From an uncultured Flavobacteriales bacterium (lineage in GTDB: Bacteria; Bacteroidota; Bacteroidia; Flavobacteriales_G; JALEGO01): 64,000 nt of DNA. Every line of letters starts with the position of its first letter. Within the stretch, counting starts at the first letter, position 1. Both the position numbers and the translations under genes were made by a program. The notes below the pieces were generated by a model, which made no database searches, was not told where the DNA came from, and saw nothing but the letters and a program-made list of their open reading frames with translations. Of this stretch, positions 418-53,403 are shown one piece after another. The stretch covers positions 44,553 through 108,552 of the forward strand of contig CAYOHR010000004.1 of assembly GCA_964403835.1 (NCBI GenBank). Reading direction: 5' to 3'.

Positions 418-1362
418 TTATGAAACCTTTTCTAACACTTCCTTCAAAAAATTTTGATAGGTCATTTTAATGCCTTCTTCTAAAGATATTTTTGGGCTCC
501 AACCTAGTTTTTTTGCCTTGCTGATATCTAATACTTTGCGCATGGTTCCGTCGGGTTTAGAAGTATTAAAAACCAAAATACCTTCAAATCCAATAATACG
601 TGCAATAAGTTCGGCCAGTTCTTGTATGCTTAAATCTTCTCCGGTACCAATGTTTATAATATCCGGGGTGTTATGGTGTTGCATAAAATAGAAACAGGCA
701 TCGGCCAAATCTTGGGTATGTAAAAATTCTCGTTTAGGCTTTCCTGTCCCCCAAATTTCTACTTCATTTTTTTGATTTGTTTTGGCTTCGTGAATTTTTC
801 TGATTAATGCTGGTAAAACGTGCGAATTATTTAAATCATAATTATCTTTTGGGCCATACATGTTGGTGGGCATTAAAGAGATAAAATTGCAGCCGTATTG
901 TAAATGAAACGATTCGCATAATTTTAGCCCTGCTATTTTGGCTAAAGCATAGGGTTCATTTGTTTTTTCTAAAGGGCCGGATAATAAATATTCTTCTTTA
1001 ATAGGTTGAGGGCAATCTTTAGGGTAAATGCAAGATGAGCCTAAAAACAAAAGTTTTTTTACTTCATATTTATATGCAGCATAAATAACATTATTCTCAA
1101 TCTGTAAATTATCATAAATAAAATCGGCTCGGTATATGTTATTAGCTTGTATTCCGCCCACTTTAGCTGCAGCTAAAAAAACAAATTCAGGTTTTTCTTT
1201 TTCAAAAAAATCTAATACAGCTTGTTGGTTTCTCAGGTCTAATTCTTTCGATGATTTACATACAAAATTAGTATACCCTTCTTTTTTTAATTTTCGGAGA
1301 ATAGCAGAACCAACCATTCCGTTATGTCCGGCTATGTATATCTTACTTTGAATATTCATCAT
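418..1362 (-). CDS. fcl: GDP-L-fucose synthase
   Basis: IYIAGHNGMVGSA, FLAAAKVGGI, LFLGSSCIYPK, NEPYALAKIAG, WGTGKPKREFLH, KPDG motifs; directly downstream of gmd. Confidence 0.97.
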   Translation of the reverse strand: MMNIQSKIYIAGHNGMVGSAILRKLKKEGYTNFVCKSSKELDLRNQQAVLDFFEKEKPEFVFLAAAKVGGIQANNIYRADFIYDNLQIENNVIYAAYKYEVKKLLFLGSSCIYPKDCPQPIKEEYLLSGPLEKTNEPYALAKIAGLKLCESFHLQYGCNFISLMPTNMYGPKDNYDLNNSHVLPALIRKIHEAKTNQKNEVEIWGTGKPKREFLHTQDLADACFYFMQHHNTPDIINIGTGEDLSIQELAELIARIIGFEGILVFNTSKPDGTMRKVLDISKAKKLGWSPKISLEEGIKMTYQNFLKEVLEKVS

Positions 1363-1376
1363 GAGCGAAAAAGTTA

Positions 1377-2457
1377 TTATTCGTTAAACATATAAATACT
1401 ATGTCCTTTTTCTAGTAAATATTTATCGCGATTAAATAAATCGATATCGCCTGCAATCATTTCTTTTACTAAGTCCTGTACAGTATATTTAGGAGTCCAG
1501 CCTAACTCATTTTTTGCTTTTGTAGCATCACCAATTAATAACTCAACCTCTGTTGGTCTGAAATATTTTTTATCTATTTCAATCAAAACTGAATTATCTT
1601 TTGCGTTTAAGCCTTTTTCATCTATCCCTTTACCTACCCAATTAATGGTAATTCCTACTTCCCGAAAAGCCATATTAATAAATTCGCGTACAGAAGTGGT
1701 TACACCGGTGGCCAATACATAATCATCGGCTTCTTTTTGCTGCAACATTCTCCACATACCTTCTACATAGTCTTTAGCGTGTCCCCAATCTCTTTCAGCA
1801 TCTAAATTACCAACATATAATTTTGTTTGTAAGCCCAGTTTTATTTTAGCAACTGCCCGGGTTATTTTTCGTGTTACAAAAGTTTCTCCGCGCAAAGGAC
1901 TTTCATGATTGAATAAAATACCGTTGCAAGCATACATTCCATAAGCTTCGCGATAGTTTTTTACAATCCAAAAGTTTTGCAACCGCATAAGGACTTCTGG
2001 GGTAAAAAGGTGTTTTTTCGGTTTGAGGAATTTCTTGCACTTTCCCGTATAGCTCAGAAGTAGACGCTTGATAGAACTTGGTTTTGGCTTCCAATTTTAA
2101 AATCCGGATGGCTTCTAAAATCCTTAAAGAACCAATAGCATCGGCATTTGCAGTATATTCAGGGGTTTCAAAAGAAACCTGAACATGCGATTGTGCTGCT
2201 AAATTGTATATTTCATCGGGTTGAACATCTTGAATTATGCGAATAAGATTGGTAGAATCAGTCATATCGCCATAATGCAAATGAAAATTTACATGATCTT
2301 CATGTGGATCTTTGTATAAATGGTCAATTCTTTGTGTATTAAAAAGAGAACTTCTTCTTTTAATACCATGAACGGTATATCCTTTTCCAAGCAATAGTTC
2401 TGCTAAATACGCTCCATCCTGGCCCGTTATTCCTGTAATTAACGCGATTTTACTCAT
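1377..2457 (-). pseudogene. gmd: GDP-mannose 4,6-dehydratase split by a frameshift near 1968-1974
   Basis: N-half ([46 protein letters not shown]) and C-half ([40 protein letters not shown]) are in different frames. The junction reads AAA CTT T TGG ATT, about 8 nt short of the usual AKL-YxY/F-WI. Confidence 0.88.
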
Positions 2458-4044: not shown

Positions 4045-4090
4045 GTTTTACATTTTAAAGTAAAATTAGTATTTTTAAGATTCTCTTGCT

Positions 4091-4219
4091 ATGAAAAAAA
4101 CTTATTTAATACTTTTATTATTGGGTATTTTTGCCTTTGTTTCCTGTCGGCCCTTGCCAAGTGGAAAAAAATATAATAATAAAAAGGATAAAAAATGTAA
4201 TTGCTCTAGCTTAGGTTAA
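4091..4219 (+). CDS. Small (42 aa) putative lipoprotein, not in the ORF track
   Basis: MKKTYLILLLLGIFAFVSCRPLPSGKKYNNKKDKKCNCSSLG*: basic N-terminus, hydrophobic core, lipobox-like FVS-C, C-terminal CxC. Confidence 0.6.
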   Translation: MKKTYLILLLLGIFAFVSCRPLPSGKKYNNKKDKKCNCSSLG

Positions 4220-4250
4220 CTCATTTCATTATTATTGTAAAAAAAATACA

Positions 4251-4706
4251 ATGTCTGAAGAGTCTCCAAAAAAATTATACGATAAAATTGATAAAAACCT
4301 TTTAAAAGCGATTCCAAATCCATCGAAAGGTGCTTATGAAATAAAAATAAAAATTCCTGAATTTACTTTCTTAGGAGTTCATAATCAGCCTGATTTTGCA
4401 ACGGTTTACCTCACTTTTTATCCGAAAAATAAAATTATTGAGTTAAAAGCACTCAAATATTATGTTTATCAAATGCGTGACATTATTGTATCGTATGAAC
4501 GATTAATCAATATTTTTTACGATCATTTGATGGAAGTATATGAGCCTGAAAGATTAAGGATTGTTTTAGTGTGTAATGCTCGCGGAGGAATTACCTCGCA
4601 ATTAACAATAGATTCTGACTGGAAAGTTCGTGGTGGTCAAGAAAGATTTAAAGATTGGTTTGGGAAAGAACAAGAAGGTGAAGGCCATTTTGAAGTGTTA
4701 AGATAG
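4251..4706 (+). CDS. QueF-like T-fold protein lacking the catalytic Cys
   Basis: PEFTFLG-VHNQPDFA, QueF motif ELKALKYY, SYE and ARGGI align with type I QueF (EFTSLCPKTGQPDFA, ESKSLKLY, FHE, RGGI), but Cys is replaced by Gly and His by Tyr. Confidence 0.85.
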   Translation: MSEESPKKLYDKIDKNLLKAIPNPSKGAYEIKIKIPEFTFLGVHNQPDFATVYLTFYPKNKIIELKALKYYVYQMRDIIVSYERLINIFYDHLMEVYEPERLRIVLVCNARGGITSQLTIDSDWKVRGGQERFKDWFGKEQEGEGHFEVLR

Positions 4707-7359: not shown

Positions 7360-9720
7360 TCATACAGGGTCTTCTTCCACCTCAATGAGCGGTTTTTGTG
7401 TTAATTCCTTCCTTAATTTTCTATTGTGTATAGAAAGTAAAATAGAAGGAAGTAGTAATAAATTAGTCGCTAATGAAATAATTAAAGTAAGCGAAACTAA
7501 AACCCCTAAAGCAACCGTACCGCCAAAATCAGAGGCGGCAAAAATACCAAAGCCTAAAAAGAGAATAACTGTGGTATATACCATGCTTAAGCCGGTTTCT
7601 TTAATAGCTATAGAAATAGCCTCCGTCACCTTTCTTTTTTGTTTTTTTAATTCGTGCCGATATTTGGTTAAAAAATAAACGGTTCCATCCGATGAAATAC
7701 CAAAAGCAACGCTAAAAATAAGAATGGTTGATGGTTTAAGGCGAATATCTAAAAACCCCATGATACCTGCTGTTATAATTAAAGGAATTAAACAAGGAAT
7801 TTTAGAAAAAACGATAATTCGGACCGATCTAAATAAGGCTAAACCAATTAAAGCAATTAAAATAATTTCTATAATTAAACTTTCAAAAAGGTTAGATAAA
7901 AGGTAATCGTTATTTTTTAAGAACATAAGGCTGTGGCCTGTTAGCGTTACTTCATAATCAGTATTTCTAAAAACAGAATCAATGCGCGGCCTGATTTCAC
8001 TCATTAAAACATTCATTTTTTGGGATCCAATATCCAGCATTTGATAACTAATTCTGGTTAAACTGCGCGCAGTATCCATAAAAGAGTTCAATTTATTGTC
8101 TGTTTCTTTTAAATTTCCTCTAAATGACGCTATTTTATTGAGTTCAAGCGCATTGGGTAGTTTGTAAAATTTAGGATCGCCGTATTTATACCCTTGGTAC
8201 GAAAACTTTAATCCTTCCACAATGGATAAAGGCTTTGAAAACTCATCATATTGGGCAAATATTTTTTGTAGCGCTCTAATTTTATAAATAGCCGATGCCG
8301 AATTTTCAAATAATCCATTTGGTTTTTTAGTATCAACCACAATTTCAAAGGCTAAAATCCCATGAAAGTTTTTTTCGAAAAACCGAATGTTTTCAAACAC
8401 CGGGTCTTTTTTCGGAAGATCATCAATGACAAAACCAACCACTTTTACTTCATACAAACCAATCAAAGAAATAATAGTAGCAATAGCAGTCGTGTAATAA
8501 ATACGCTTTCTTTTGTGTTGCACCATTTCATCAACCCAAGCTAATAAAGAATTAATTCTTTTTCCGCTTAAATGTTGGGTCTGTTTTGAAGTCGGATTTG
8601 GTAAGTAAAATAAAATAACAGGAATAAGAATAAGCGTAATTAAATAAGTGGCCATAACATTAATGGCGGCTATCACTCCAAACTCTACCAGCATCTCACT
8701 ATTTGTAAAATAGAGCACGCCAAAGCCAATAGATGTGGTAATATTTGCTAAAAACAGCGTAATGCCTATGGTTTCAATCATAGTTGATAAGGCTTGTGTT
8801 TTATTGCCATGTATAGCAAATTCACTTTGATACTTGTTAATTAAAAACACACAATTGGGCACGCCAATAACCATCATAAGAGGGGCTAATAAGCCAGTTA
8901 AAACAGTTATTTTGTAATGAAATAGTTGTAGGCTGCCGAGCGACCATAAAACGCCAATGATAACAACCAACAGCGAAAAAAATACTACCGAAAAATTTCT
9001 GAAAAATGCCCATAAAATAATGCCCATGACAATAACAGCTAAAGCAAGAAATAAAATTGCTTCGCCGGCAACTTTTTTCATCATTTGGCTTCGGATGTAT
9101 GGCAACCCCGAGTAATACATTTTGATATTATTATTTTTTGAGAAAATCTCCCCTTCTTTGGTAATGTCTTCTGCCATTTGCAGTCTTCTCTTGGTGTTTA
9201 ATGCTTGGGTTTCAAAGGTAACAGCAATAAGGGTACTGTGTGTTTCTTTGTTGTAAATATACCCATCATAAAAGGGCATATTTTCAATGGCCGTTCGAAT
9301 GCTATCAGAAGTATAATTTTGGTTTAAAGGGAAATTAAAAACTTTTACAAAATCAAACTTTTGTAAACTATCGTTTCTAAGTATGTTATAGGTCTGAGGC
9401 AGCGAAATAACTTCCTTAACACCTTCAATTTTTTCGATTTTTTTTCCTAAATCATTCCAGCGACTAAATATTTTGGTGTCAAACAAATTACTATCCTGAA
9501 ACCCTAGCACCATTACATTTCCATCTTGCCCAAATCTTTTTTTGAAATTTTCATACGCAATAAAGGTGCTGTCATTAGCAGGCAATACTTTTGGGTATTC
9601 ATACGATAGCTCTAATTTCGATGCCTCAAAAGCCATAAAAGCAGTAATGAGGAGGCAGCCGAATAAAAAGGCTTTTTTGTTTTTTAAAAGTAATTCAGCA
9701 AACGATTTCCACATAATCAT
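7360..9720 (-). CDS. MMPL/RND-family transporter
   Basis: Two halves of one TM, a large periplasmic loop and five TMs; VIGVPNCVFL, ANITTSIGFG and FGISSDGTVYF motifs. Confidence 0.85.
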   Translation of the reverse strand: MIMWKSFAELLLKNKKAFLFGCLLITAFMAFEASKLELSYEYPKVLPANDSTFIAYENFKKRFGQDGNVMVLGFQDSNLFDTKIFSRWNDLGKKIEKIEGVKEVISLPQTYNILRNDSLQKFDFVKVFNFPLNQNYTSDSIRTAIENMPFYDGYIYNKETHSTLIAVTFETQALNTKRRLQMAEDITKEGEIFSKNNNIKMYYSGLPYIRSQMMKKVAGEAILFLALAVIVMGIILWAFFRNFSVVFFSLLVVIIGVLWSLGSLQLFHYKITVLTGLLAPLMMVIGVPNCVFLINKYQSEFAIHGNKTQALSTMIETIGITLFLANITTSIGFGVLYFTNSEMLVEFGVIAAINVMATYLITLILIPVILFYLPNPTSKQTQHLSGKRINSLLAWVDEMVQHKRKRIYYTTAIATIISLIGLYEVKVVGFVIDDLPKKDPVFENIRFFEKNFHGILAFEIVVDTKKPNGLFENSASAIYKIRALQKIFAQYDEFSKPLSIVEGLKFSYQGYKYGDPKFYKLPNALELNKIASFRGNLKETDNKLNSFMDTARSLTRISYQMLDIGSQKMNVLMSEIRPRIDSVFRNTDYEVTLTGHSLMFLKNNDYLLSNLFESLIIEIILIALIGLALFRSVRIIVFSKIPCLIPLIITAGIMGFLDIRLKPSTILIFSVAFGISSDGTVYFLTKYRHELKKQKRKVTEAISIAIKETGLSMVYTTVILFLGFGIFAASDFGGTVALGVLVSLTLIISLATNLLLLPSILLSIHNRKLRKELTQKPLIEVEEDPV

Positions 9721-9910
9721 ATCTAAACAAGTACAATACTAGTTATTTTATATTAAATTTAGGTAAATAGGGCTTCTTTTATGATATTTTAGGAAGCATT
9801 ATTGCTTGTAAATCTCACTTTAACAACTGATTATAGGTATTTTCTTTTGAAAATAACATTTACGGAAGGGGATAAGTTTTTGAATGCTAGCAGTATTCAA
9901 AGATCTTCGA

Positions 9911-9918
9911 TATATTTG
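9911..9918 (+). promoter_or_regulatory. -7 promoter box (TATATTTG) for the PTPS-folE operon
   Basis: Exact TAnnTTTG match 17 nt upstream of the ATG. Confidence 0.6.
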
Positions 9919-9935
9919 CATCGAAAAAAAATGGC

Positions 9936-10349
9936 ATGGTATATATAACTAGAAGAGAACGTTTTAATGCGGCCCATAAATTATGGAATGAAAAATGGGA
10001 TCAAAAAACGAATGATGATATTTTTGGTAAATGCGCTAACCCTAACTGGCACGGGCATAATTATGATATGTATGTGACAGTAAAAGGCGAAATTAATCCG
10101 GATCGCGGATGGGTAATTGATTTAAAAGAACTAAGCCATTTGCTTAAAATAAAAATTGTAGATGTGCTGGATCATAAAAACCTGAATTTGGATGTTGATT
10201 TTATGAAAGATAAATGGGCTTCTACAGAGGTTTTAGCCATCGAAATTTGGAAACAAATTGAAACCGATATTAAAAAAATGGGAGCCACGTTACATTGTGT
10301 AAAATTGATGGAAACCGAAAATAATTACGCAGAATATTATGGGGAATAA
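9936..10349 (+). CDS. 6-pyruvoyl-tetrahydropterin synthase family protein (PTPS-II-type motif)
   Basis: [16 protein letters not shown] (C-x5-HGH), LDHKNLN, ASTEVLA, ETENN; overlaps the folE start. Confidence 0.9.
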
Positions 10350-10989
10350 GAAAAAGGCAAAAGTAATTACTCGTTTGTCACAAGATGATGATGAAAATTA
10401 TTCGGTAGAACATCGCTATAATGAAGCGGCAACAAAAAAACTGACCACCCATTTTCAAGGAATTATTAGTTTGATTGGGGAGGATGTAAAACGAGAAGGA
10501 TTAATAAAAACACCCGAAAGAGCGGCAAAGGCTATGCAGTTTTTAACACAGGGCTATCATCAGGACCCTGCCGAAATTCTTAAATCGGCTATGTTTAAAG
10601 AAGATTATAGTCAAATGGTTATTGTGAAAGACATTGAAGTATATTCTATGTGTGAACATCATCTTTTACCCTTTTTTGGAAAGGCGCACATTGCCTACAT
10701 ACCTAACGGTTATATTGTTGGTTTAAGTAAAATTCCACGTATTGTTGATGCTTTTTCGCGTCGATTGCAGGTGCAGGAGCGCTTAACCAACGAAATTCGC
10801 GATTGTATTCATGAAACATTAAAGCCCTTGGGAGTGGCTGTGGTTATAGAAGCAAAACATATGTGTATGCAAATACGGGGTGTTCAAAAACAAAATTCAG
10901 TAACCACTACTTCTGCTTTTAAAGGCGAATTTTTAAAAGAAGCAACACGGAAGGAGTTTATTTCATTAATTTCATCCAAATTGTCTTAG
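10339..10989 (+). CDS. folE: GTP cyclohydrolase I
   Basis: [51 protein letters not shown]. Confidence 0.97.
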
Positions 10990-11195
10990 ATGTTAGATGT
11001 TAGATGATTAGATATTAGACTATTAGATGTTAGATTTTTAGACTCATAGATGTTAGATAACTAGAAATTCGAAACTATAAAACTCGAAACCCAAAACTCG
11101 AAACCCAAAACTCTAAACTCTAAACTCTAAACTCTAAACTCCAAACTCCAAACTCATAAACCAAAACTCCAAACTCATTAAACTCGAAACTCAAA
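10985..11195. repeat. Degenerate heptamer tandem repeat tract: (GATGTTA-like)n followed by (AAACTCN-like)n
   Basis: Fills the whole folE-fabD intergenic space, e.g. ttagatgttagatgttagatg... then aaactctaaactctaaactctaaactcc.... Confidence 0.9.
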
Positions 11196-12068
11196 ATGAA
11201 AGCATATATTTTTCCAGGACAAGGAGCTCAATTCCCAGGTATGGGTAAAGACTTATATCAGGCGAATAATCAAATTAAAAGTTTAATTGACCAGGCCGAT
11301 CAAATTTTGGGGTTTGAGTTATCTAAAATTATGTTTGAAGGATCTGAAGAGGAGCTAAAACAAACCAAAGTAACACAACCCGCTATTTTTTTGCACAGCA
11401 TTGCGGTTATTAAGTCTCTTACAAGCTTTAAACCCGATATGGTGGCAGGTCATTCTTTAGGAGAGTTTTCAGCCTTAGTTGCCAATGAATGTTTACGTTT
11501 TGAAGATGCTTTACAATTAGTTTTTCAACGGGCTTTAGCCATGCAAAAAGCATGTGAGCTACAACCCTCCACCATGGCTGCTATACTAGGTTTGGAAGAT
11601 GATGTAGTGGAGAAAATATGTAGTCAAATGCCGGGTGTCGTAATCCCTGCTAATTATAACAGCCCGGGTCAGTTAGTTATTTCGGGTGAAATAGCCGCTG
11701 TTACAGAGGCCTGTGAAAAATTGAAAGAAGCCGGAGCCAAAAGAGCGCTTTTACTGCCTGTGGGCGGAGCTTTCCACTCTCCGTTAATGGATTCGGCCAA
11801 ACTTCAATTGCAAGCCGCCATCGAAAAAACTTCTTTTCATACTCCTATTTGCCCAATTTACCAAAATGTGGATGCAAAACCATACACCGATTCGGTACGT
11901 ATTAAAGAAAATTTAATTAAGCAATTAACGGCTCCGGTACGTTGGACACAAACCGTTCAAAATATGATTGGAGATGGAGCCACGGAATTTATAGAAGCAG
12001 GTCCGGGCAAAGTATTACAAGGCTTGGTAAAAAAAATTAACCGAGAAATGGTGGCGGAAAGCGCCTAA
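11196..12068 (+). CDS. fabD: Malonyl CoA-ACP transacylase
   Basis: FPGQGAQ, TQPAIF, GHSLGE (catalytic Ser), ANYNSPGQLVISG, GAFHS, EAGPGKVL. Confidence 0.97.
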   Translation: MKAYIFPGQGAQFPGMGKDLYQANNQIKSLIDQADQILGFELSKIMFEGSEEELKQTKVTQPAIFLHSIAVIKSLTSFKPDMVAGHSLGEFSALVANECLRFEDALQLVFQRALAMQKACELQPSTMAAILGLEDDVVEKICSQMPGVVIPANYNSPGQLVISGEIAAVTEACEKLKEAGAKRALLLPVGGAFHSPLMDSAKLQLQAAIEKTSFHTPICPIYQNVDAKPYTDSVRIKENLIKQLTAPVRWTQTVQNMIGDGATEFIEAGPGKVLQGLVKKINREMVAESA

Positions 12069-12073
12069 AAAAA

Positions 12074-12823
12074 TTATAACGTATTATTCAATAATTTTCC
12101 ACCGGTAATCAACTTATGCAAACCCTCATGTTTTCTAGCATGTTGCGTTAATTCAATATGACCCATGTGATGACAATCGCTGCCAATAAATTGGTACATA
12201 TTGTTCTCGATCAAGTATTCAGCGGCTTTTTGTGTTTGTTGATTGTAATGTCCGGTTAAAGAATTGATATTTAACTGCAAAAATATGCCCTTATCAAACC
12301 ATTCATGAAATTTATCATAATTGTGGTGCCAGTATCCGTAGCGCTCAGGATGTGCCATAATTGGCTTGTAACCGTTCATTTGCAGCTCGAAAAGGGCTTC
12401 GGGTAGTAAACGGCCTTCCGAAACAAAAGAAAGCTCAAATAACACGTATTTATCACCAAAGGTGAGAATGTTTTTTTTCTCTAACTCTTCCATGAAATGT
12501 TGATCGAGAAAATATTCCGAAGCAGCCTCAATTTCAATGTTCATATTTCTTTTTACCAGCTCTTCCCGCACTTTATCTAAGCCCGCTCGAATAATATCTG
12601 GCGTATTCTTATAATAATCAATCATCGTATGGGGCGTGGTAATCACTTTTTTATATCCCAGTTTTATAAACTCCTCTATAAGGAACATACTATCATCCAT
12701 GGTTTGTGCTCCATCATCAATTCCGGGAATTAAATGAGAATGCATATCTACCTGAACAACGGATAAATCAATGGGTGGATTAGTAAATTTATTTTTTTTG
12801 AATAATTTTTCAAAGAATGACAT
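12074..12823 (-). CDS. PHP-family tyrosine-protein phosphatase (CpsB/CapC type)
   Basis: DMHSHLIPGIDDG, TTPH, AHPERY, GSDCH metal-binding motifs. Confidence 0.88.
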   Translation of the reverse strand: MSFFEKLFKKNKFTNPPIDLSVVQVDMHSHLIPGIDDGAQTMDDSMFLIEEFIKLGYKKVITTPHTMIDYYKNTPDIIRAGLDKVREELVKRNMNIEIEAASEYFLDQHFMEELEKKNILTFGDKYVLFELSFVSEGRLLPEALFELQMNGYKPIMAHPERYGYWHHNYDKFHEWFDKGIFLQLNINSLTGHYNQQTQKAAEYLIENNMYQFIGSDCHHMGHIELTQHARKHEGLHKLITGGKLLNNTL

Positions 12824-12873
12824 ACTGTAAAGTTAATAATCTTTTTATATCAAGCCCAATCGGGCTAAAGAAA

Positions 12874-13416
12874 TTACTTTTTGGGAGTCCTAAAAAATGA
12901 AAATTTTATACCTCCGTATTTACGCTCTTCAAAATAACCGGGCGTGTTCAAAAAACTCTTTTTTGCTTCGTGTTCCAGAATAAAAATTCCATCTTCTTTT
13001 AGTGTTTCTAACTCAAAAATGGTATTTATTAATTTTTCATATTCTTCAAATGCAAACGGGGGATCGGCAAAAATCAGATCATACTTTTGACTATCTCGTT
13101 TTAAAAATTGAAAAACATCTGATTTATAAGCTTTTATGGCGTTAAAATTAGATTTCTCAACCGTTTTTTGAATAAACTTAATGCATTCATAAGATTCATC
13201 TACCGCATATACTAAATGGGCTCCGCGCGAAGCAAATTCGTAACTGATATTTCCGGTGCCTGCAAACAAATCCAAAACAGTACATTCTTCAAAATCAACC
13301 CAATTATTCAAGATATTGAATAGCCCTTCTTTCGCAAAATCAGTAGTAGGTCTGGATGGAAGGCTTGCCGGCGCATCAATTCTTTTGCCTCTGTATTTTC
13401 CTGATATTATTCTCAC
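12874..13416 (-). CDS. rsmD: 16S rRNA (guanine966-N2)-methyltransferase
   Basis: MRIISGKYRG, RPTTD, VLDLFAGTGNIS, IFADPPF. Confidence 0.92.
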   Translation of the reverse strand: MRIISGKYRGKRIDAPASLPSRPTTDFAKEGLFNILNNWVDFEECTVLDLFAGTGNISYEFASRGAHLVYAVDESYECIKFIQKTVEKSNFNAIKAYKSDVFQFLKRDSQKYDLIFADPPFAFEEYEKLINTIFELETLKEDGIFILEHEAKKSFLNTPGYFEERKYGGIKFSFFRTPKK

Positions 13417-53272: not shown

Positions 53273-53280
53273 TATATTTG
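53273..53280 (+). promoter_or_regulatory. -7 promoter box (TATATTTG) for the SRP RNA
   Basis: Exact TAnnTTTG match 3 nt before the SRP RNA terminal stem. Confidence 0.75.
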
Positions 53281-53283
53281 CAC

Positions 53284-53383
53284 GGGGTAAGTCCTGTACG
53301 ACCAGCTCCTGCTGAACTCCCCCAGGCTGGGAACGGAGCAAGGGTAGGTGGTTGTAGCGGTGCGATGCAGGTCAGCTTACCCC
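53284..53383 (+). ncRNA. ffs: Small bacterial SRP RNA (4.5S)
   Basis: Terminal stem GGGGTAAG/CTTACCCC; conserved helix-8 core CAGG-CTG-GGAA-CGG-AGCA; GC-rich 100-nt hairpin with its own promoter. Confidence 0.9.
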
Positions 53384-53403
53384 TTCTTTAAATTATAAGT
53401 ACT

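Follow-up and report, generated by a model that had tools for sequence, protein, structure and literature searches.

What can a protein of the QueF fold do when the cysteine that defines QueF is replaced by glycine? This question is raised by a 64,000-nucleotide stretch of DNA from an uncultured Flavobacteriales bacterium (contig CAYOHR010000004.1, positions 44,553 to 108,552; the whole stretch is called the window here), in which an open reading frame (ORF) encodes a QueF-like T-fold protein without the catalytic Cys. The protein and its relatives are named G-type in this work, and QueF-like proteins that keep the cysteine are named Cys-type. The ORF and the motifs encoded in it are the following:

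4251..4706, + strand: ORF of the Cys-less QueF-like (G-type) T-fold protein; ATG start, 151 amino acids (aa) plus stop, intact
4359..4397, + strand: substrate loop E37-F-T-F-L-G42-V-H-N-Q-P-D48-F49, from the alignment to 4f8b/4fgc
4374..4376, + strand: Gly42, codon gga, at the column of the catalytic thioimide Cys55, from the alignment
4440..4463, + strand: QueF motif E64-L-K-A-L-K-Y-Y71, including the equivalent of Glu78; fits the pattern of PMC5372742
4491..4502, + strand: S81-Y82-E83-R84, in which E83 is the T-fold ring-anchoring Glu (QueF Glu97)
4581..4589, + strand: R111-G112-G113, common to QueF, from the alignment
4611..4637, + strand: G-type-specific C-terminal motif D121-S-D-W124 ... 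R127-G-G129, outside the QueF-aligned region

In the published definition of QueF (PMC5372742), Cys55 of the Bacillus subtilis enzyme (Cys194 in Vibrio cholerae) forms the thioimide, Asp62/201 is the general acid, Glu97/234 anchors the substrate, the NADPH-binding motif includes Glu78/94, and the QueF motif reads E(S/L)K(S/A)hK(L/Y)(Y/F/W); sequences without the defining residues (Cys, Asp, Glu, QueF motif) were set aside by the authors as "non-QueF". In the alignment to the PDB sequences, the segment EFTFLGV-HNQPDF of the window protein stands opposite EFTSLCPKTGQPDF of B. subtilis QueF, and the loop is shorter by one residue. Asp48, located in QPDF, corresponds to the general acid Asp62 and is 100% conserved. 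E83 is 100% conserved as well, whereas the S, Y and R around it are specific to G-type, F-H-E-x being found at the same place in QueF. E64, K69 and Y71 are conserved in at least 95% of the G-type and Cys-type representatives alike. An earlier note on this DNA had reported the same motifs (EFTFLG, SYE where QueF has FHE, and a retained QueF motif, Asp, both Glu residues and RGG), and all of them were confirmed by the alignment to QueF.

The sole Pfam family matched by the protein encoded at 4251..4706 was QueF (PF14489, E=1.3e-16), and its top PDB sequence matches were those of B. subtilis QueF (4f8b, 4fgc and 5udg; E ~1e-13, ~31% identity). With the NCBIfam profile TIGR03139 (preQ1 synthase, unimodular) it scored 83.2 bits, below the cut-off of 86.9 bits. 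Judged by its sequence, the window protein is a QueF homologue but, by the definition of PMC5372742, no QueF; it is probably not a functional member of that family, because the defining Cys is absent and the curated TIGR03139 cut-off is not reached. The AlphaFold2 model, built with 40 homologues as input (mean predicted local distance difference test, pLDDT, 73; predicted template-modelling score, pTM, 0.72), shows the elements E31-39, E49-57, H65-75, H82-97, E101-109 and E115-121, that is, a beta-beta-alpha-alpha-beta-beta T-fold. A Foldseek search with this model returned B. subtilis QueF first (TM-score 0.67-0.73); GTP cyclohydrolase I and archaeal QueF-L ranked next. The criterion used for the T-fold was one beta-beta-alpha-alpha-beta-beta domain of ~120-160 aa with a conserved Glu/Gln anchoring a purine or pterin; as modelled, the window protein belongs to the T-fold superfamily, with a single unimodular domain and a ring-anchoring Glu. 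The DSDW..RGG block has low confidence in the monomer model (pLDDT 58-66) and was found in 78/80 of the viral copies described below.

Compared with unimodular QueF of B. subtilis, G-type has the same single T-fold domain of ~150 aa and shares the E-x-T ... QPDF frame, the Asp, the Glu, the NADPH motif and RGG. Unlike QueF, it has an invariant Gly in place of Cys55-Pro, a shorter loop, S-Y-E-R instead of F-H-E-x, and no Cys99; moreover, it carries the additional invariant C-terminal motif DSDW..RGG, and its genes stand in methionine and folate operons and not with queCDE. QueF-L, the archaeosine synthase of Crenarchaeota (5jyx and 5k0p; TMq 0.53-0.59), is likewise a QueF-derived T-fold recruited to another reaction, and in a way it is the mirror image of G-type: in QueF-L the Cys thioimide is retained and the NADPH site is gone, whereas in G-type the Cys is gone and the NADPH motif is retained. 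Both features that characterize QueF-L (a Cys thioimide and no QueF motif) are reversed in the window protein. GTP cyclohydrolase I (FolE), the sister family of QueF, has the same T-fold and was matched weakly (1wm9, E=0.15; fold TM-score ~0.5), and the matching PHROG family carries the label "GTP cyclohydrolase". Unlike FolE, G-type carries the QueF motif, by which the two families are told apart, and the window protein has no PF01227 match.

The absence of the catalytic residue could in principle be explained by a decaying or mis-sequenced queF gene, that is, by a lineage-specific pseudogene or by a miscalled base in the Cys codon. Apart from that absence, the frameshift in the neighbouring gmd gene would be the only argument for this explanation, which the family as a whole contradicts. 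A word-index search yielded 2140 homologues, of which the best 120 are 70-82% identical to the window protein; those with names are Bacteroidota (Flavobacteriales, Crocinitomix, Reichenbachiella), and SYER is present in 119 of these 120. Orthologues were also sought in model Bacteroidota for which mutant libraries exist, such as Echinicola, but the best 120 Cyclobacteriaceae-type matches are nearly all from uncultured metagenome-assembled genomes (MAGs). Several of the homologues are called preQ(1) synthase or 7-cyano-7-deazaguanine reductase in public records. Among 40 aligned homologues, T39, F40, L41, G42, V43, Q46-P-D-F49, E64 and K69 are invariant, and so are S81-Y-E-R84, R111-G-G, D121-S-D-W124 and R127-G-G.

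When 1.84 billion cluster representatives (50% clustering) were scanned exhaustively with HMMER, 1199 relatives were obtained. Among the best-scoring 150, 115 were of sufficient length for classification: the Gly signature is present in at least 45 and canonical Cys-Pro in 42, and the rest are mostly fragments or chimeras. A simple distance (neighbour-joining) tree, in which 43 G-type and 41 Cys-type representatives were compared, placed all 43 usable Gly-type sequences and no Cys-type sequence in a single clade. G42 is present in 100% of the 43 G-type representatives, Cys-Pro occupying the place in the 41 Cys-type ones, and mean identity is 42% within Gly-type, 46% within Cys-type and 33% between them. 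The residues specific to Gly-type are F40, G42, S81, Y82 and R84; the ring-binding, acid and NADPH-motif positions are common with QueF. Purifying selection, which the earlier note had proposed to check, proved strong: a codon analysis of 77 gap-free orthologues gave pN 0.14 versus pS 0.88 overall, and the median ratio of nonsynonymous to synonymous substitution rates (dN/dS) was 0.075 among the 35 pairs unsaturated at synonymous sites.

With a Gly signature that does not vary among thousands of sequences, drawn from several phyla and from phages, a monophyletic clade, a dN/dS of ~0.08, and a loop that is one residue shorter with correlated S-Y-R changes, the probability of decay or error is negligible, and lineage-specific decay or sequencing error is refuted by conservation, clade and purifying selection. 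A substitute cysteine elsewhere in the protein was also considered and rejected, since Cys-free members exist (12/43 G-type representatives and 36/80 viral copies have zero cysteines) and no Cys column is conserved; because so many members have no Cys at all, no alternative Cys could rescue thioimide chemistry. The earlier note had taken the intact ORF as an argument against decay and had inferred a QueF-fold protein without thioimide chemistry that would act in some other way on a guanine- or pterin-like ring. Both statements are supported: the signature is family-wide and monophyletic under strong selection, the Cys-to-Gly change is invariant, Cys-free members exist, and the gene neighbours are not those of queuosine synthesis. 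The two findings that, according to the same note, would have spoken against it, close homologues that all have Cys and another Cys at the site, were not encountered; the Gly signature runs throughout the close homologues in one clade. From these comparisons, G-type is a branch of its own, and an ancient one, within the QueF/T-fold family. The branch is apparently undescribed until now: in what was mainly open full-text literature, including papers on QueF and QueF-L, on paralog annotation and on deazaguanines, GapMind 2026 and a 2026 MTHFR review, neither a QueF subfamily lacking the Cys nor a QueF-like gene within a metH operon was found to be described, and an earlier description is possible.

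Several other observations were made among the relatives. One representative, P0262, is another Cys-less QueF variant, with Asp in the Cys column (ELTFKDPVSGYPDF), and belongs to an SHE/RGN branch. A Lar-like zinc ribbon is present in P0122 and an N-terminal extension of the CxxC type in P0129; both proteins look phage-derived. P0166 consists of an MsrA N-terminal half and a G-type C-terminal half, and P0149 of a G-type N-terminal half and FliM; both look like assembly or frameshift chimeras. Apart from the zinc ribbon and these probable MsrA and FliM chimeras, no informative domain fusion was found among the relatives. Copies with 75-77% identity to the Bacteroidota protein occur outside this phylum, in the isolate gammaproteobacterium Aliikangiella sp. 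G2MR2-5 (L067) and in MAGs that bear the labels Kangiellaceae, Marinimicrobia and Deltaproteobacteria (L031, L081 and L037/L083). These copies indicate lateral transfer or, for the MAGs, mis-binning.

The 10-kb flanks of G-type genes were analyzed in 82 genome loci in all, 80 of which were taken from species-representative genomes. The gene of the cobalamin-dependent methionine synthase, metH, adjoins the G-type gene in 45/82 loci. In 39/82, metH is split and the G-type gene stands exactly between its parts: the part for the Hcy domain comes first, then G-type, then the part for the pterin-B12-activation domains. The median gaps at the two junctions are 3 nt and 46 nt, and start and stop codons often overlap. 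In the 3-Mb genome L001, the G-type gene is divergent from an unsplit metH. In 11 of the 12 loci tested, an S-adenosylmethionine (SAM)-I riboswitch was detected just 5' of the first metH gene, L026 being without one at the gathering score:

~8800..13200 in most: SAM-I riboswitch and split metH, loci L017, L029, L045, L050, L068, L015, L018, L020, L033, L034 and L047

The split-metH arrangement with a SAM-I riboswitch is typical of many Cytophagales and Crocinitomicaceae. Because the riboswitch precedes the metH operon in these loci, the G-type gene belongs to a SAM-repressed methionine operon. No riboswitch was found upstream of 7 stand-alone G-type copies.

Further neighbours were recorded in bacteria. 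In Reichenbachiella and Marinoscillum, a canonical metF (PF02219) follows in the same operon as the G-type gene; in a Marinimicrobia genome, a lone MetH-type Pterin_bind gene is located 15 nt upstream; thyX lies 33 nt upstream in two MAGs (L037 and L083); in L078 the gene stands between cysD and cysN; and a 48%-identical member is divergent from thyA-folA. Additionally, a separate scan of metagenome contigs revealed as neighbours 9 further split metH loci, 6 thyX and 2 metK, and 2 distant metH-like genes were found there immediately upstream of G-type. No folD gene adjoins the G-type gene in 249 loci. In the Flavobacteriales MAGs L008-L012, L016, L021 and L071, a gene resembling the riboflavin synthase alpha chain (by eye) is convergent with G-type at a distance of ~430-530 nt downstream (811 nt in L014), and this may be mere synteny.

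The position of the gene exactly at the MetH domain boundary, with gaps resembling those of translational coupling, is what would be expected if G-type were a non-catalytic partner of methionine synthase, which binds or delivers folate or NADPH, forms a scaffold between the split MetH halves, or serves as a sensor. The loss of a nucleophile is typical of pseudo-enzymes, and the idea agrees with the sensing or sequestration that the earlier note had mentioned as alternatives. However, G-type genes also occur with unsplit metH (L001), with metE, with thyX or alone, and the Asp and the complete NADPH motif are invariant at a mean identity of ~40%, which argues for retained catalysis. Moreover, QueF-type proteins form homodecamers (PMC5699537), an odd architecture for a 1:1 bridge. 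We therefore regard a purely non-catalytic partner as unlikely.

The same metabolic association was observed in viruses. G-type proteins with 53-76% identity and the same signature are encoded in 110 IMG/VR viral contigs, the viral status being based on the IMG/VR classification and on the neighbouring genes; 80 viral copies were compared for motifs and Cys. The genes stand in long co-directional arrays, and their neighbours encode a DnaE-like polymerase, ClpP, a T4-type clamp-loader subunit, ribonucleotide reductase, PhoH, DNA methyltransferases and ORFs with PHROG matches only. Genes of the methyl cycle were found at a distance of at most 1.5 kb from the viral G-type gene as follows:

S-adenosylhomocysteine hydrolase (ahcY): 15 loci
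SAM synthetase (metK): 9 loci
full-length cobalamin-independent methionine synthase (metE): 3 loci
Pfs-type nucleosidase (pfs): 3 loci
adenine phosphoribosyltransferase (apt): 2 loci

Typical gene orders are G-type-MetK-AhcY (L119, L124) and Apt-Pfs-...-MetK-DUF2452-G-type-MetE (L129). Methyl-cycle modules of this kind (Apt, Pfs or AhcY, MetK, MetE) are present in uncultivated phages (viral contigs L119, L124, L129, L131, L144 and L157), and DNA methyltransferase genes lie within ~6 kb in L119, L124 and L131. A DUF2452-like gene of 130-150 aa is located directly downstream of G-type in 14 viral and 2 metagenome loci (L202, L215); the viral loci with this gene are L089-L103, L129, L138, L141 and L143, and in L129 it stands upstream, between metK and G-type. 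It gave no PHROG match and has no copy in the bacterial genome loci. The DUF2452-like protein may be a partner of G-type.

The viral copies also bear on the question whether G-type is still an enzyme of 7-deazaguanine metabolism, which would reduce preQ0 independently of Cys or act on another intermediate, e.g. a 7-formyl or 7-imine derivative. Phages carry deazaguanine pathways (PMC10516641, PMC7198788), QueF is the nearest relative in sequence and fold, and the database names of the homologues (preQ(1) synthase, 7-cyano-7-deazaguanine reductase) suggest this function. Among the cultured phages of INPHARED, no close G-type homologue was found, only Cys-type QueF at ~34% identity. On the other hand, the published mechanism needs the Cys thioimide and Cys-less sequences were excluded as non-QueF (PMC5372742), the window protein scores below the TIGR03139 cut-off, and the conserved neighbours are methionine and folate genes. 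When the flanks of the 248 other copies, phages included, were searched with tblastn (3.1 Mb in all), no QueC, QueE, PTPS/QueD or FolE was detected; the QueC and QueE probes had been validated on PDB 3bl5 and 5tgs. The genomic context of G-type is unrelated to queuosine synthesis, and a deazaguanine function is very improbable.

The neighbours converge on the folate-bound one-carbon unit used by methionine synthase. Because the gene is linked to both MetH and MetE, the shared folate substrate is implicated, and not cobalamin; the pairing with thyX and thyA-folA points to the branch point at methylene-tetrahydrofolate (methylene-THF). We tentatively propose, with a probability of roughly 40%, that G-type serves the methyl cycle as an NADPH-dependent, Cys-independent reductase acting on the one-carbon unit linked to N5 of THF. 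Folate as the ligand, the use of NADPH and the reaction itself are what we infer from motifs and neighbours. In the proposed mechanism, the two Glu residues (Glu83 and Glu64) would hold a 2-amino-4-oxo heterocycle, Asp48 would be the general acid, and the retained helix would bind NADPH; only the nucleophile with which QueF activates an unreactive nitrile has been lost. By structural comparison, N5 of a pterin would occupy the ring position of N7 in a purine or C7 in 7-deazaguanine, to which the nitrile carbon of preQ0 is attached. The N5-linked carbons of methenyl- and methylene-THF are already cationic electrophiles, for which a thiol would not be needed. Hydride could thus pass directly from NADPH to the N5-linked one-carbon unit, converting 5,10-methenyl-THF to 5,10-methylene-THF and/or methylene-THF to 5-methyl-THF, and either product would supply both methionine synthase and the SAM methyl cycle.

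A functional analogy, and nothing closer, is provided by the flavin-independent methylenetetrahydrofolate reductases (MTHFRs) of mycobacteria (MSMEG_6649 type), which transfer hydride directly from the nicotinamide of NADH to CH2-THF, with neither a flavin nor a covalent intermediate (PMC13001107). MTHFR/MetF genes and G-type genes both cluster with methionine synthase. MetF is a TIM barrel (PF02219) with no homology to G-type, and the window protein gave no PF02219 match; any likeness of G-type to MetF or FolD would lie in the reaction and not in common descent. A more doubtful extension, drawn by analogy, is that the enzyme would carry out both reductions, from 5,10-methenyl-THF to 5-methyl-THF, with no need of flavin, metal or covalent catalysis, both in the metH operons of Bacteroidota and as an auxiliary gene of marine and freshwater phages. 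QueF makes two successive hydride transfers on one carbon.

Several observations weigh against a one-carbon reductase. MetF stands in the same operon in Reichenbachiella and Marinoscillum and appears on the same contigs widely in Cytophagales, and because of this co-occurrence a methylene-to-methyl reductase would be redundant there. To our knowledge FolD is nearly universal, and a methenyl-to-methylene reductase would therefore duplicate it. Owing to this redundancy with MetF and FolD, the proposal was kept in its general form and neither step was chosen. The linkage to thyX and thyA fits a supply of methylene-THF better than an MTHFR-like step, and tpx, globin and ferritin neighbours at some loci hint at a role in oxidative stress or repair. 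In a high-GC soil clade, in which ORF calling is noisy, the copies stand alone with the uninformative neighbours guaA, uvrD and cysC. The window copy, too, stands alone, flanked by the divergent mlaEF genes on one side and a DUF5686 gene on the other, and its closest relatives are likewise stand-alone genes with uninformative neighbours. Two narrower roles were also considered: a simple non-orthologous replacement of MetF is rejected for Cytophagales, where MetF shares operons or contigs with G-type, and a role in the reactivation of B12 or MetH is unlikely, given that the gene also pairs with the B12-independent MetE and with thyX.

The redundancy problem would disappear if G-type were instead a reductase or repair enzyme of the folate or pterin ring, which re-reduces oxidized folate (quinonoid dihydrofolate, 5-methyl-dihydrofolate or dihydrofolate) with NADPH, since this would duplicate neither MetF nor FolD. 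Such an enzyme would protect the labile methyl-THF/THF pool of the methionine and thymidylate synthases. It would rest on the same ring-binding and NADPH motifs, and it would suit the thyA-folA and thyX linkage, the globin and tpx-like genes upstream or the ferritin-like gene divergent from G-type in some loci (tpx-like and ferritin-like by eye), and one chimeric read that joins G-type to msrA. However, in QueF the hydride goes to an exocyclic carbon on ring position 7, a geometry that would better fit an N5-linked carbon, a canonical folA is already located beside one member, and the oxidative-stress neighbours are few and lineage-restricted. Ring repair, and with it the protection of the folate pool, thus appears improbable, and reduction of the N5-linked one-carbon unit is the reading that we retain.

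The window's own surroundings contain the following features:

4045..4250, no strand: upstream intergenic region of the G-type gene, adjoining the divergent mlaE-mlaF genes; no Rfam family
9936..10989, + strand: PTPS gene overlapping FolE by 11 nt, a small pterin operon; C-x5-HGH motif
1377..2457, - strand: GDP-mannose 4,6-dehydratase gene (gmd), split by a frameshift into two overlapping ORFs
418..1362: intact GDP-fucose synthase-like gene beside gmd
53278..53386, + strand: small signal recognition particle (SRP) RNA of the Bacteroidales type, 97.9 bits; the only Rfam family in the window

The region 4045..4250, upstream of the window copy, gave no riboswitch and no other match in Rfam. A functional link to the PTPS-FolE pair ~5 kb downstream was considered and rejected as coincidence, as this pair is near no other G-type copy; the C-x5-HGH motif of the PTPS is the animal-type pattern. 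In gmd, positions 1-159 of the Pfam profile are matched in 1906..2457 and positions 160-332 in 1380..1988, and the frameshift reflects either a pseudogene or an assembly error. The type of the SRP RNA supports the Bacteroidota origin of the window.

The annotation of G-type proteins as preQ(1) synthase inflates the queuosine capacity that is inferred for Bacteroidota and viromes. The methyl cycle is a textbook pathway that is thought to be fully known. The G-type gene is fixed in the SAM-riboswitch-controlled methionine-synthase operon across several Bacteroidota orders, and an extra conserved component of the methyl cycle would imply that a step has been missed, that another route exists or that some repair takes place. 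In viruses, metK, ahcY, pfs and metE together with the G-type gene define a "methyl-cycle module", which is relevant to phage DNA methylation and host takeover. A small, cofactor-free reductase of folate one-carbon units would, if the proposal is true, be of interest for biocatalysis, and a branch that has lost the Cys and kept the NADPH site is a natural experiment on how the T-fold is re-tooled.

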